Positions 1 to 23,813 of a stretch of 64,000 bases of DNA are shown piece by piece; position 1 is the first letter of the stretch, and every line of letters starts with the position of its first letter. The notes under the pieces are model-generated. The model saw only the letters and a list, made by a program, of their open reading frames with translations. It was not told where the DNA came from and ran no database searches. The position numbers and the translations under genes were made by a program. The DNA comes from Nanobdellota archaeon (GTDB lineage: Archaea; Nanobdellota; Nanobdellia; Woesearchaeales; UBA11576). The stretch covers positions 1,786-65,785 of the forward strand of contig JBHPEY010000005.1 in the NCBI GenBank assembly GCA_042576705.1, written 5' to 3'.

Positions 1-964
1 TGAGGTCTATATCCAATGGTACTGTCACACGAGGGCTGTGGAACCGCGCCCTGTCCTCACATTCAACATAGAAGGTGTGACTTGCCTTGAGCGGCACTCC
101 TGGAAAGACTATGTCATCTGAGGCGGCCTTCTCGTAGGCGTAGAAATCATCCTGATCGTAACCTGTAAAAGCGACCATATCCCAGTAGGTTGTGTTGTCC
201 GCTTCTATGTACCTGCATATCACGGGCTCGGAGGCCTTGACAGTCAATGTGGAAAATATCGCCCCTGAAAGAGGAAACTCCACCAGAGGAGACGGGTCGA
301 AAGTGGCAGACTCTATCTTTGGAGGAGTGGTGTCTGCAAATATCCTGAAGTTGTTGAAGTTCTCCCTCTCGAGATCATCCTTGCATGCAACGACCAATAT
401 CCTGAAACCCAACGGGTTGTCAGGGTCGACCTCATAATCAAATATCTTGTGGATCATCTGGAGGTCTTCAGCAGATGCATCTCCTGTCGAATCAAAATAC
501 TTCAGGCGGATATCATCAAAAGATCCCACTGAAACACCAGTATACTTGCACTCGCAGGGCCTCGATGTCTTGACTGCCACTGTAAACTCTGTCGAATTGC
601 CGACCCCGATGCTGTTCGGCTCCAGCAGCTCGATGGTTGTCGACGGGATGAACACGTCGAAGGAATAGATGTATTTGTTGGGATTCCCGACCAGGTCAGA
701 GGCGTGTATCACCAGGTCATGCCTTCCGTTGAGAAGGGCCTTTGAAGGCACGAACACAAATGTCTTATCGTCAATCTGTGAGCTCAAATCCACAGGTATG
801 ATCCTGCCAGTCTCAACCTCTTCTATGACATAGCTTATCAGCACAACCTTCTCCTGGAATGCCGCGGTTATCTGGGGCTTGACCTCATTGACAGTCTCAA
901 TAGCCAGACAGAACGAACTTAACAATATGAATGCAATTATTGGTAATGCAATTATTGACCTCAT
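1..964 (-). CDS. Secreted Ig-like-repeat surface protein, N-terminal part (gene runs off the left edge)
   Basis: Absent from the ORF track because it is truncated. My translation of the minus strand from ATG 964-962 gives MRSIIALPIIAFILLSSFCLAIETVNEV... (signal-peptide-like) and stays open to the window edge. It carries the same domain-boundary motifs as the giant gene upstream (HASDLVGNPN; ADTTPPKIES). Its start overlaps the upstream stop (ATGA at 961-964). Confidence 0.6.
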   Translation of the reverse strand, partial: MRSIIALPIIAFILLSSFCLAIETVNEVKPQITAAFQEKVVLISYVIEEVETGRIIPVDLSSQIDDKTFVFVPSKALLNGRHDLVIHASDLVGNPNKYIYSFDVFIPSTTIELLEPNSIGVGNSTEFTVAVKTSRPCECKYTGVSVGSFDDIRLKYFDSTGDASAEDLQMIHKIFDYEVDPDNPLGFRILVVACKDDLERENFNNFRIFADTTPPKIESATFDPSPLVEFPLSGAIFSTLTVKASEPVICRYIEADNTTYWDMVAFTGYDQDDFYAYEKAASDDIVFPGVPLKASHTFYVECEDRARFHSPRVTVPLDIDL

Positions 965-3900
965 TGTGTCGGGATATTCCCATTTTCTATGAGTGAGGGA
1001 GGAAGGCATTTAGTCCAGTCTTCCCCAAGACAAAACAGCGGACCTGATGGTGGCGTGATGTCGGTTATCACCTGAAGGTCCCTCCGGCTTATGTGCCCGG
1101 CAATATCGCTTGCAAAAATACTCATGTTGTTGATATGATTTATCAGCATGTGTGAATAGACAATCGGCGACAGTGCGAGACCGCCCACAGAAGGATCAGG
1201 CAGCTTCACACTCACTGTGAAGGCATCCGGCTTCCCATCTACATAGGTTATGTTCGCAAGCTTCTTATCATTAGCGACTCCTGTGGTCTCGTTGAAATCT
1301 CCAGGATACACCCAGACCCTGTCTATATCATCGTCAATCAGGGTCCCTGAAACCACAACGCTCGGATACGACGTGAACAGCTCTGTCCCTATCTCGACAG
1401 TGTTTGATATGCCGATGGTCAGGTTCGCTATCCTGGGAGCGGTCAGGTCGATATAAACAGGAATAGTCACAGATCTCTTGTTGCCTGCGAAGTCTGAAAG
1501 GGTCACCTTCATGGAGGTGTTCCCCTCATCAACCTTCTTATAGTCGGGCACGTTCCACACAAAGTAATATAATTGTTCCTGGCCTGAGGTGTAAAGCGGC
1601 TTGTAATGCTGGCCCAGCACCTCTAGATCAGCATACAATGAATGCCTCTCATTCTTCACCCATGCAAAGAGTGTCAGGTTTATGTTATCCATGAACCTCG
1701 TCTGGAACGCGAGCGTGTAGTCAGGCGCCTGGTCGTCCACCGTGAACTTGAACGGGCCATATGTGCCGGTGTTCGACTGTGTCTTGTCGTCCAGTATCTT
1801 GTATGCCTTTATGATGACCCCATAATCCATCCAGGCCATCCCGCCCGTGGTCTTTGGCGTGGCAAACTTGCAATAGAAAATGTTGTATTCAGTCTCTGTG
1901 CAGTCTGCGGCCTCACCTTCTGTAGGGGTAGACTCCATGATAATATCAACCAGAGTCACGTCATTCGGCTCTGCGCTGAAATCCACTATGAAATCAGGCG
2001 ATTTCGTGACATACCACCTATCGTCGCCAGGTGGACCTGAGAACCCACCTATCAGCTCGAAATATGGATTCGCAGGCACGTTCCTGTCTATATTAAAGGT
2101 CCAGTGGGATGATGTAGAGTCCTCATTAAATGGGTTCAATGCAAGGTCTGTCCCCTCAACCGCAATATTGTAATCACCATCATCAAGATTATCCACTGAA
2201 TGGTATATCTTATGGTACCGGGAGTTAGGATCAAGAGCTTCATACTCTCTTGCCCGTTCTATAGAGTAGGTGACGGCATGCCCGTTCATGAGGAAATCCA
2301 CTGAATTGTTGAACAGGCCGGACTCCCCTGTACCCTCCTTGACGATAACGGATATGTCAAACGTCACCTGTGAAGTCGAGCCATCCAAAGGATAATGATT
2401 CACCACCTGCGGAGAGACAGTATCGGCGAAGAATGTCAGATACGACGGAACGGTATTTATCCTCGGGTAACGCACCCTGTTCCCCACCTCATCGTAGGAC
2501 TTCATGTAGAATGTCGTGTTCTTGAACATCGCAAGCGACAGGTTAAAACCGAACCAGTATGTCGGGTTAACCGTGTCATAGAAGAATACGCTCTTGTCAT
2601 TCACACCATCTTCCAGACCAGAATCAATGGCCACAGAAGTGAACTCTTCTGCAGAGTCATACGCGAGACCCGTGACATCATAGAACATGCCATAACTGCC
2701 ATAGGTCTCCTTGGGCCCCATCGTGGTCTGTTCAGTGTTGAATCCTATGTACATGCCCGAATCCACATAGGTCTGCAGGTTGCCTATTATCCTCACCTCA
2801 TCGTCCCACTTGAGGCCTGCAAGGACCGTGTCCTCATGCTCCATCGATGTCGGTGTCTGCATGAATGTATATTCAGAGTCCTTGTCATCAATAGTGGTCA
2901 CTGCAATGACATCCAGCAATTCCTCAGTATATCCTGTCAAGAATATGCTGTCTCCACGGACATAATACGTGCCGTTATGGTAATGGACAGGGTATCCCAA
3001 CGCCTGAAACTCAGACTGCTCCTTGGACGGGTCCTCGAGGCTCGGCTCAAGCACCGGAGCTGCAGGGGGCTTGGTGTCAAGCACTATTGTCATCGATCCT
3101 GTCCCTGTAACATTATGATAATCAATCCCCTCGGCAGTGAATGTCAGCAGGCCCTCAAATCCCCTGTTGGCGTTTATGTTCTCCATAAAGAACATGCCCT
3201 CCCAGACAGACGGGTCTGTGGTCGGCAGCAATTCCACTGCATTGCTGAACTTCGAAGGAGAAGAACTGTATATCAATGAAGGCTCATCCAGGGCAGGGCT
3301 TATGAAAGGCTTATCAGATGACACCCTTACCTTGTACATGACATTCAGGACAACAAAGCCTGCTGTCGTGCTTCCATCCAACAGCTCGATGGTTATGTTA
3401 GGGGGGACCTTATCGATCTGGAAAAGCTCATTCTCGACAGGCACCTCTGCATTATCTCCAATATCCTTGGAGAAATAAGTCAGGTGCGTGGTCTCATCAA
3501 GGCCGATATAATTCCCGTATTCCTCCCATAACAGACCGCTGGAGCAATCCTCTCCCTCGCAATAATGCGATGAACTGCATCCGAAACTCCAATCCCTTCC
3601 GAGCCCCTCCAGTGCAGGGTCCCCGCAATGCAGATGCACTGCTATGTCCCTGTTGTACCAGCCATTGTATGGGCTAGCATCAACACTGTGCATGGTCACG
3701 GGCGGCTCCTGATCGATCGCAAAGATTATCTGGTCTGCGGAATTCCCCCTGATCTTTCCCGTCTCAACATCAGCAAATATTTTGCACTTCACATAATACC
3801 TGTGGAAGCCATGACCAAGGGTCACATCTGAGCTGTGATGGGTCATGGGGGCGGTCTCTGCTCCTGTCGTGCTGAACAGGGTCATGGAATCGAAGATGCC

Positions 3901-23300: not shown

Positions 23301-23813
23301 ACTGTCTGTCGCCCCTTCAAAACTCGCTTTCAAACCCATCTTGTCATCAGCATAACCTCCGTGGGAGCTTATAAACTGAGGGTAATCCAGTCCCAAGTCA
23401 AATGGCTGCATCCCCAGTACAAACTTCAGTTTGGTTATTTCAGAATCTTCTGGAACAGGACTTAAGCTGCTGAAAATGTTGTATAGCTCCTTAATATCCA
23501 CTGTTGAATATGTCTCTATTGCTCCGCCATCAACCGTATCACTAACTGCTGAAATATCAGGATGCTGCCCGTATAGCAAATCATGCCAGATGCAGGTATT
23601 TGAAGTCGCTTCCGCATCCTTATAGCAGGCCTTCCAATATATCTTTGTGTTTTCCTCAGGTACACTTGCAAGGTGGATTCCTGGGATGTCCCCCCCAGCA
23701 CCTCCACCTCCTCCAATAGGACCTCTAGCAGCAACACTGGCAAGAAGCAAAGGAAGTGTCAAAAAAAGGACTAATGAGAACAAGCAGTATTTTGATACCC
23801 TCTTTTTTGCCAT
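20352..23813 (-). CDS. 1153-aa secreted protein, unknown function (Gly-rich N-terminal linker, Asp/Cys-rich middle)
   Basis: Signal peptide MAKKRVSKYCLFSLVLFLTLPLLLASVAA followed by GPIGGGGGAGGD. Contains CDMDGDGYDSN and CDDNPHDD..HPGATDFC motifs related to the neighbouring genes. First gene of a co-directional string running down to 15683. Confidence 0.7.
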   Translation of the reverse strand: MAKKRVSKYCLFSLVLFLTLPLLLASVAARGPIGGGGGAGGDIPGIHLASVPEENTKIYWKACYKDAEATSNTCIWHDLLYGQHPDISAVSDTVDGGAIETYSTVDIKELYNIFSSLSPVPEDSEITKLKFVLGMQPFDLGLDYPQFISSHGGYADDKMGLKASFEGATDSSCLVVNNIDRIDQDITSFTLPFAGSLDWTCIEADILSRDSCDEMADWTQEFCEGIDNVYPNTGVVSGIGTSSLGGCQQVPDTANSPRSYGRDWYTHLPGEDIFPDDFRDDAAEPFIDRCCGNDGDLDIGAIAKNEDTSSTSIDSKNTYLCYNDTIVNPAGDMKWAFSQDVNNEFNIIPIRRFDMEYDMISNVDNWFACVIDIIHTYAPVNSLVDDWQPGLGTSDWTSGIGVAQYQGIPHSTMPTTYSTDAETEDEDILDIDEGEFNSGTGTDDPPMGSGSDGIITEDNFNSDTYDIDGPTQITACDMDGDGYDSNLWSSQTGAGDPMVKDENTGEYGKFNPDCKNPRAPYDCDDNPHDDLNDHGMAGIARMKHPGATDFCQRLSDCEGGDCDLDCNLDTDCHINPLDSLEGSDENENDAKFQTPRYLCNYVGERGQFTECCGFDLSKCRNPDRGVRVGTAVHTLREFDRYGDVEDAEPDEESTDIDPDSVADLDKTNFVLRYKIERITDSFREEIEDTENPIGNKKFLRFGLFTQKGDLNITNWGDYKFLEFYILFTANYEVELWVGQFDGTGGLSDFDNYIFPVKFRIVDYVVNEPELEKWLHVVIPTNEIMRPEGLRPDVLAFVSDGERLLDFDTVQIAGESASYSNIVGVDKISLRPYNEPKSQSGSDLDPITHTNAAGPGAENAYCTATWPPTWIKDLDEDGTVDDSLPAGDNPAGRFTCDSIPSYGWTGNMCCGDDTGRDAVFYAFNDPNNLRGRETFKEYYSDTYAGCWAGNKLAENSRVMMLKYDMYSSGQEHNIQRSCRNYNCSFELPPMQNVLITNEYPELYDLLFTSTTYGRMDIGAGALAPSDKVWLKAENVPLQILYFDEDFHACNAVDEYFDDLTITVPPDEGDPLISDFLRSEGPTCEVLGDYFCEHEDSRNLGWSDTPVKIHPDAEGKLTAEDGSEITIDTDDPGPTRRIHTKRNYNLVKNGGFENV

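Follow-up and report, generated by a model that had tools for sequence, protein, structure and literature searches.

The stretch of DNA analyzed here, referred to below as the window, comprised 64,000 nucleotides (nt) from a Nanobdellota archaeon of the order Woesearchaeales (genome G000). The window corresponded to G000:C5:1786-65785 (genome:contig:positions), and the 1.70-Mb genome was 89% complete in 77 contigs. An earlier sequence-only reading had described window positions 1-23813 as a 24-kb arsenal of giant cysteine (Cys)-rich and immunoglobulin-like (Ig-like) secreted proteins. Gene order in relatives indicated that this segment is the upstream (front) half of a vertically inherited locus of ~43 kb or more. 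The core of the locus consisted of a gene for a giant secreted protein (P0002, the giant), a gene for a partner with a single transmembrane (TM) helix (P0001, the anchor), and four genes for pilin-like proteins (pil1 to pil4). We propose, with a probability of about 0.55, that this locus encodes a type-IV-filament-related surface complex that would display giant disulfide- and Ca-stabilized proteins for cell contact. The proposal was built on gene linkage, signal peptides, membrane topology, gene fusion, and distribution, and attachment is the function that we infer.

Woesearchaeota are the most diverse DPANN lineage and are uncultured, and we know of no host-contact mechanism in this group. 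The locus was not described in the literature that we searched, and its core families had no Pfam or NCBIfam model; it is thus a candidate for a previously undescribed cell-contact apparatus of these tiny archaea. A locus of >40 kb that is present in ~90% of the high-quality genomes of the order (as judged by pil2), and whose products are all unannotated exported proteins, offers a concrete set of targets for antibodies, cryo-electron tomography, metaproteomics, and host-range studies.

The giant, anchor, and pilin-like genes

On long contigs of relatives, gene order was collinear with that of the window, and the giant gene was followed by a gene for a ~1430-amino acid (aa) protein and then by a run of small genes, the products of which began with archaeal class III (prepilin-type) signal peptides. 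In G000, the anchor gene continued through G000:C5:1-1785 to the contig end, and its C terminus was found at C56:1-288. The assembly was evidently broken inside the anchor's repeats, which cut the presumed 24-kb arsenal short, and the pilin-like genes had gone unseen because they lie beyond the contig end. The anchor gene is the partial first gene of the sequence-only reading; it did not end at the window edge but ran on to the contig end and encoded at least 931 aa. Based on tblastn searches with a relative's proteins, C56 carried the anchor C terminus and at least seven pilin-like genes, C57 carried further pilin-like genes, and the start of C4 held the last genes of the locus, including the C terminus of a homolog of an enzyme with Metallophos, Peptidase_M15_4, and NlpC/P60 domains. 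The contig order C5, C56, C57, C4 was taken from relatives. At the locus end in the congener G041 (G041:C1, ~78000-81100), a 1046-aa secreted protein with these three domains was encoded, and its counterpart was G000:C4:3-653.

Synteny between G000 and G041 spanned housekeeping genes too, so adjacency within the genus proves little. Linkage was tested with the neighborhoods of giant genes from eight genomes of eight other families of the order. In all eight of these distant loci, which had unrelated flanks, the order giant, anchor, pil1, pil2, pil3, pil4 was found on one strand, as it was in G041 and G042; the core order was seen in 11 genomes from at least nine families. At the distant loci, the anchor was 1045-1332 aa, pil1 ~170 aa, pil2 ~350 aa, pil3 ~165 aa, and pil4 ~175 aa. 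In G041, G042, and six of the eight distant genomes, the gene immediately after that for the giant belonged to the anchor family. In two lineages, giant and anchor were fused in a single open reading frame (ORF) and there was no separate anchor gene (G161:C31:11496-20672, 3058 aa; G166:C1:339618-345152, 1844 aa). Both fusions finished with the anchor's TM helix and charged tail, terminal motif included, and the fact that the fusion occurred in two lineages argues that giant and anchor act together.

A profile of pil2 matched 177 of the 201 genomes of the order, 138 of the 152 high-quality genomes, and 151 of the 169 genera, nearly always in a single copy, and pil2 was also detected in most sampled genomes of other orders of the same class. 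The giant family, which diverged faster than pil2, was found in 46 of the 201 genomes. Where homologs had named records, the names were "Candidatus Woesearchaeota archaeon" or "Nanoarchaeota archaeon." Relative to G041, identities for locus proteins were 49% (giant), 57% (P0003), 49% (P0004), 56% (anchor), 56-67% (pil1 to pil4), 33% (P0009), and 38% (P0005), and those for neighboring housekeeping proteins were 75% (IscS), 64% (IscU), 51% (ThiI-like), and 49% (RNase P p30). With core proteins at 49-67% and housekeeping proteins at 49-75%, the core appeared to be conserved like ordinary genes. The idea that the segment might be a variable island therefore did not hold for the giant, anchor, P0003, and P0004, which were conserved across the lineage much like the RNase P p30 or ThiI-like genes. 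The GC content of the segment (0.491, compared to 0.481 for the genome) also indicated that it was not a compositionally foreign island.

As for the pilin-like proteins, a class III N terminus of the form [KR][KR][AGS]Q and the hydrophobic helix were kept in all four families in alignments of 9-10 orthologs per family, and an early Glu was present in pil2, pil3, and pil4. Profile comparison revealed that the four families were alike over the N terminus only. Genome-wide, [KR]AQ-type signals were most concentrated on C56 and C57, and the segment proteins P0002 and P0004 to P0009 had ordinary Sec-type signals, unlike pil1 to pil4. In a large protein database, pil2 had 90 homologs, all labeled "hypothetical" and none with a Pfam domain, and a search of PDB sequences with the pil2 profile gave nothing useful. 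Structure models, both of them confident, covered two proteins, pil2 and P0003. The AlphaFold2 model of pil2 (predicted local distance difference test [pLDDT], 92.3; predicted template modeling [pTM] score, 0.85) showed an N-terminal helix at residues 21-70 (50 residues) that led into a globular head made up of a beta domain and a helical bundle.

Tandem pilin-like proteins of ~90 aa with Cys-rich heads were also observed (C56:5934-6206, the end of C56, C57:541-819, and positions 811-1704 of the G041 "down" region). Their N termini were highly conserved, with the pattern KKAQG(L/M)S(M/L)NVI(I/V)IA. These proteins could be the major subunit of a putative filament.

The N-terminal ~1100 aa of the giant formed a Cys-rich half that held 80 of the protein's 96 Cys residues, a CarboxypepD_reg-like domain, and CG[DN]G repeats. 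The C-terminal ~1300 aa were Cys poor and contained at least seven "xD..PP" boundaries typical of Ig-like modules. Five CG[DN][GNA]...C.D units and three DNDCD-type units were counted in the giant, and its match to Big_13 scored 23.7 bits against a Pfam cutoff of 27; the CarboxypepD_reg match was also below its cutoff. Full-length giant orthologs were 46-55% identical. No solved relative of the giant was found in the PDB by sequence or profile search, and there was a marginal match to the Cys-rich domain of teneurin-4 (E = 0.0012).

The anchor began with a signal peptide and contained Ig-like modules and at least seven tandem 34-aa DGDGYG Cys repeats; its orthologs had a weak precomputed TSP3_bac match. 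Its topology was constant across the order, namely, a signal peptide, an ectodomain of 800-1060 aa, one TM helix, and a cytoplasmic tail of 200-350 aa. The tail contained 29-50% charged residues and often ended in a duplicated VFEVI.SYLLK.GKI..DV.ELL motif. The G041 ortholog was 1439 aa long and 56% identical.

Genes of the segment and their products

The eight minus-strand genes and the single plus-strand membrane-protein gene of the sequence-only reading were all recovered as ORFs with the positions and sizes it had given, and they occupied ~98% of window 1-23813. The genes of the segment, together with the peptidase gene next to it, were as follows.

2-964 (ORF 2-1009, partial), minus strand: P0001, N-terminal part of the anchor; probable start Met16 at 964-962
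961-8160, minus strand: P0002, giant secreted protein, 2399 aa; Sec-type signal peptide, no anchor
8355-9827, plus strand: P0003, polytopic membrane protein, 490 aa; divergently transcribed; the database gene call is 483 aa with the start at 8376
9855-11588, minus strand: P0004, 577 aa; signal peptide, six MopE-type DNDCD double-disulfide repeats, C-terminal TM anchor
11677-15600, minus strand: P0005, secreted, 1307 aa; Cys-containing N-terminal ~650 aa, one PKD-like module, ~5 repeats
15683-17287, minus strand: P0006, paralog 1, secreted, 534 aa; member of a species-specific trio; 8% Cys, 15% Asp
17284-18666, minus strand: P0007, paralog 2, 460 aa; lacks ~100 N-terminal residues that P0006 and P0008 have
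18764-20371, minus strand: P0008, paralog 3, 535 aa; possible alternative start at Met5 (20359)
20352-23813, minus strand: P0009, secreted, 1153 aa, 12% Asp; no known domain; opens the upstream transcription unit
23959-24972, plus strand: A24-type prepilin peptidase, divergent second copy, 27.6 bits; transcribed divergently from P0009

In the translations, a hydrophobic signal-type segment opened all eight minus-strand products, and the existence of full-length orthologs excluded chance ORFs. The gene overlaps that had been noted were borne out as well. Specifically, the overlap at 17284-17287 was an ATGA, that at 961-964 was an ATGA if the first gene begins at Met16, as in its ortholog, and that at 20352-20359 was 8 nt if P0008 begins at Met5. 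Motif counts confirmed that the CG[DN]G, DNDCD/MopE, and DGDGYG motifs were real, and PF11617 passed its cutoff in P0004, P0006, and P0008. In the case of the PKD and Big Ig modules, the support was mixed; PKD_4 and Big_13 were below the Pfam cutoff in the segment proteins, whereas such modules were present in the annotation of orthologs of locus proteins (precomputed PF18911 and PF19077 matches). The proposal of a dedicated apparatus rather than a simple surface layer (S-layer) stood to the extent that the genes belonged to a multigene surface system and that no family of ordinary S-layer proteins or cell-wall enzymes was among the Pfam or NCBIfam matches of the segment proteins; the notion of a self-contained 24-kb arsenal was not supported. 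The remainder of the window encoded PolD (DP1 and DP2), Orc1/Cdc6, and RNase P p30, which marks the source as archaeal. No tRNA (ARAGORN) or Rfam family at gathering score was found in window 1-64000, and a scan for bacterial-type promoters and terminators, which is not applicable to archaea, yielded sites that were no more numerous than in shuffled sequence.

P0003 had at least nine TM segments and an all-helical AlphaFold2 model (pLDDT, 82.5; pTM, 0.82). It matched no family in Pfam or NCBIfam, and a Foldseek search with the model identified no PDB neighbor at E up to 1e-3. P0003 was present in eight of the 11 congeners and in several other families, and its divergent position beside the giant was also found in G014. 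Two orthologs from congeners (G003:C1:104794-106254 and G004:C40:554-2017) contained one in-frame stop each, TAA and TGA, respectively, and could be pseudogenes or assembly errors. Two possible roles of P0003, that of a disulfide (VKOR-type) oxidoreductase and that of a TadC-like platform protein, were considered and rejected, as it has only four Cys residues, no CxxC, and no Pfam or fold match.

P0004 matched PF11617 (Cu-binding_MopE) with 79.9 bits against a cutoff of 27, with four of its six DNDCD units recovered as separate Pfam stretches. The P0004 protein was 49% identical to its G041 ortholog, and relatives were located near the giant in G014 and G131. Among the paralogs, P0006 (32.4 bits) and P0008 (30.0 bits) also exceeded the PF11617 cutoff of 27, and P0007 had no PF11617 match at E up to 0.01; two DNDCD-type units were present in each of P0006 to P0008. 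All four proteins (P0004 and P0006 to P0008) ranked among the richest 1% of ORFs in the genome by Cys content and also by Asp content. The MopE-type repeats (PF11617), the acidic double-disulfide repeats (NF033662), and the teneurin Cys-rich Ca-binding domain are likenesses of short, putative metal-binding repeat modules and do not define function.

P0005 contained ~5 divergent repeats of ~110 aa with the motif PPYD(I/V)...W.DP, which were seen by eye and were not recovered by self-BLAST. PKD_4 scored 21.0 bits against a cutoff of 27 in P0005, and the P0005 ortholog carried PKD_4. The 50.3-bit match of P0005 to PamR (NF058578) covered 41 residues and compared to a curated cutoff of 300; it gives a hint of a possible fibronectin type III fold, not of PamR membership (PMC13278184). 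In G044 and G149, relatives of P0005 were encoded on the upstream side of the giant. P0009 orthologs with 33-45% identity were found in four of the 11 congeners and in four other genomes of the family, and distant relatives were located upstream of the giant in G044, G131, and G161. PDB sequence searches with P0005 and P0009 gave nothing useful, with chance-level matches at best.

The paralog family P0006 to P0008 was absent from 10 of the 11 congeners, and the eleventh had a motif-level match only. Among 1.84 billion representative proteins, the family had just 22 matches with E values of 1e-10 or lower, and for six of these the value was 1e-30 or lower. The paralogs shared an invariant Cys framework and a C-terminal ~130 aa that was almost identical, and their N-terminal parts (heads) differed. 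The interval from P0003 to P0009 was 6.4-7.1 kb in three relatives compared to 10.5 kb here. At the position of the trio, G041 had two different genes (309 and 523 aa), and the 523-aa protein was distantly related to the C-terminal part of P0008. Within the segment, only P0006 to P0008 were species specific, and their architecture, in which the head varies and the tail is conserved, makes them natural candidates for setting specificity.

Proposed mechanism, known systems, and rival explanations

The predicted steps of cleavage, assembly, physical interaction, and cell contact would be as follows. A prepilin peptidase would cleave the four pilin-like proteins, and a machine encoded in trans would build pil1 to pil4 into a short stalk or a priming/tip complex. 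This complex and the membrane anchor would hold the unanchored giant at the cell surface, and the disulfide- and Ca-stabilized N-terminal half of the giant, carried on its Ig-like stalk, would contact another cell. The upstream unit (P0009, P0008, P0007, P0006, P0005, and P0004) would provide accessory ectodomain proteins. Within this unit, the fast-evolving and copy-number-variable P0006 to P0008, with a variable head and a conserved C-terminal module, would be the best candidates for determining specificity. In this genus, the locus ends with peptidoglycan hydrolases, which may hint at a bacterial partner. Elsewhere in the window (49639-53274, plus strand), we observed a gene for a 1211-aa protein with SLT lytic transglycosylase and M23 peptidase domains; its domain content suggests that it is a peptidoglycan-cutting enzyme, and such an enzyme in an archaeon is consistent with a bacterial partner or prey. 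A more far-reaching version of the proposal, which we regard as doubtful, is that the core is a self-contained contact organelle of Woesearchaeales and related orders of Nanobdellia. Such an organelle, long sought in these DPANN archaea, would dock on a partner, probably a bacterium, and breach its wall with co-encoded peptidoglycan hydrolases. It would use a type IV filament chassis, subunit folds without known relatives, and the anchor tail for signaling or docking.

Bacterial type IVa pili have a tip complex of four minor pilins with the large PilC/PilY1 protein as its cap (PMC10191384). The locus resembled PilH-I-J-K (FimU-PilVWX) with PilC/PilY1, as well as GspH-I-J-K, in having four pilin-like genes in a fixed order beside a gene for a large non-pilin surface protein. 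As in these tip complexes, the pilin-like proteins had prepilin-type signals, pil2 (~350 aa) was much larger than the other three, and Ca-binding-type repeats were present in the large partner. In contrast, no sequence or fold similarity to PilY1 or the Gsp/Pil minor pilins was detected, with the fold compared for pil2. The locus also differed from the tips of type IVa pili and type II secretion systems because its large partners were two proteins, one of them secreted, Cys rich, and 2400 aa long and the other TM anchored with a tail in the cytoplasm, because it lacked ATPase, platform, and canonical peptidase genes, and because the organism is an archaeon.

Predicted archaeal type IV pilus loci contain large secreted adhesins and Cys-containing, C-terminally anchored proteins (PMC4858521). 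The locus was similar to those described by Makarova, Koonin, and Albers in 2016 (clade 1/Epd-type of Methanococci; Thermoproteales), which combine class III proteins, a large secreted protein, and a large Cys-containing C-terminally anchored protein (PMC4858521). Moreover, the class III signal had Gln at +1, as in the Epd-type pilins that are processed by EppA. The 2016 loci, however, were defined around an ATPase and TadC, and neither gene was ever found in the locus studied here. A census of archaeal type IV filaments from 2026 describes these systems as rare in DPANN (PMC13705601). Both the 2016 and the 2026 censuses were built on ATPase and platform genes, so this locus escapes them. We class the locus as a putative type-IV-filament accessory or adhesin module.

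A complete type IV pilus machine, which could act in trans, was encoded elsewhere in G000. On contig C6, a canonical pilus locus encoded an ATPase, two T2SSF platform proteins, and several proteins with class III signals, and a second ATPase was encoded on C8. A canonical A24 peptidase was found at G000:C26:3255-3572 (54 bits). G000 and G041 each had two A24-type peptidases, and the distant genomes had one clear copy, located away from the locus. The A24 gene next to the segment (23959-24972) also adjoined P0009 in G041. We considered this gene as the locus's own peptidase, but it is a divergent second copy that was found beside the locus only in this genus, and it may be part of this locus or of the neighboring radical-SAM cassette.

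Several results weighed against a filament-related contact complex. No T2SSE-type ATPase was found in or near the locus in G000, G041, and G042 or in the eight distant loci, and none of the genomes examined had a platform or canonical prepilin peptidase gene there, so we infer the link to a type IV filament machine. The head of pil2 matched no solved pilin or pseudopilin in the PDB (best Foldseek E = 7e-3, TM-score at most 0.22), and no PilY1-type domain (Neisseria_PilC or DUF2341) was detected in P0001, P0002, P0005, or P0009 by Pfam at E up to 0.01. The upstream accessory genes (relatives of P0009, P0005, and P0004) were less strictly linked to the core than the pilin-like genes, and the association with peptidoglycan hydrolases was not seen in the eight distant loci. 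In addition, a structural envelope layer would account equally well for the near-universal distribution and the housekeeping-like conservation.

The last point leads to the strongest of the alternatives, namely, that the locus encodes a two-component S-layer or sheath scaffold with a structural role. The unanchored giant would be the canopy, its single-pass partner would be the stalk, and the pilin-like and Cys-rich proteins would be anchoring accessories. The pair is indeed reminiscent of SlaA/SlaB of Sulfolobales, where the gene for a very large unanchored protein likewise adjoins that for a partner whose only TM helix is on the C-terminal side. The near-universal and mostly single-copy distribution and the housekeeping-like evolutionary rate point the same way, as do the N-glycosylation sequons, which were most frequent in the giant (1.1 per 100 aa) and the anchor (1.5) among the locus proteins checked (0-0.35 in the others). 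S-layer-like proteins with C-terminal TM helices and conserved Cys residues have also been predicted inside archaeal type IV pilus loci (PMC4858521). However, there was no detectable homology to SlaA/SlaB, and the segment proteins matched no S-layer family in Pfam or NCBIfam. The cytoplasmic tail of the anchor was also long (200-350 aa) and conserved and bore a motif at its end. To our knowledge, stalks of known S-layers (SlaB) have no such tail. Strict collinearity with four pilin-like genes is likewise no feature of known S-layer operons, and many other giant surface proteins of the genome could equally be envelope components. We consider an S-layer scaffold unlikely on balance, with an appreciable chance of being correct.

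Another possibility is an archaeal counterpart of the type II secretion pseudopilus, in which pil1 to pil4 would form a short piston or tip that recognizes the large Sec-exported proteins and hydrolases of the locus and expels them through the envelope instead of displaying them. The fixed order of the four pilin-like genes recalls GspH-I-J-K, the complex of which binds secreted effectors (PMC10191384), most of the large locus proteins had no membrane anchor, and a secreted peptidoglycan hydrolase was encoded in the locus in this genus. Nevertheless, the two lineages in which giant and TM anchor are fused argue for surface retention rather than release, pil2 showed no structural similarity to Gsp pseudopilins, and the locus had no dedicated ATPase or platform gene. 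Furthermore, we know of no type II secretion system in archaea. A secretion piston therefore seemed quite improbable. Finally, the view that these are independent secreted proteins with no joint function, together only through the synteny of close relatives, would fit the G000/G041 synteny over the whole region, housekeeping genes included, and the variation of upstream accessory genes between lineages, yet for the core it was contradicted by the order kept in eight other families with unrelated flanks, and the fusion in two lineages and the start-to-stop gene overlaps also oppose it, which makes it very unlikely indeed.

Other membrane and surface proteins of the genome

A 490-aa single-pass membrane protein encoded near the locus end (G000:C4:682-2154, plus strand) carried the cytoplasmic motif L..YI......G.....I...L...G.....I. 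The same motif was found in single-pass membrane proteins encoded at window 27756-28817 (minus strand), at window 55748-57049 (plus strand), at ~38340 on C4, and at ~2405 on C50. The motif in the anchor tail was similar in style to this recurring motif.

Outside the main locus, there were also large proteins (~700-950 aa) with class III signals, e.g., GKKAQLTIFIILGIVILG. Two were encoded in the window (57035-59890 and 60800-63991, both minus strand) and two on contig C1 (G000:C1:100343-102478 and C1:108237-110447). These proteins had a modular, pilin-like look and no Pfam matches.

G000 also encoded enormous ORFs of 16,159 aa (C11:150-48629, plus strand) and 15,707 aa (C13:2-47125, plus strand), each of which spanned a whole contig, and other giants of 6001, 5591, and 4930 aa (on contigs including C32, C19, and C10). 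The 15 largest ORFs of the genome totaled ~81,000 aa, or ~14% of the 1.7-Mb genome, and the 2399-aa giant ranked approximately 15th in size.

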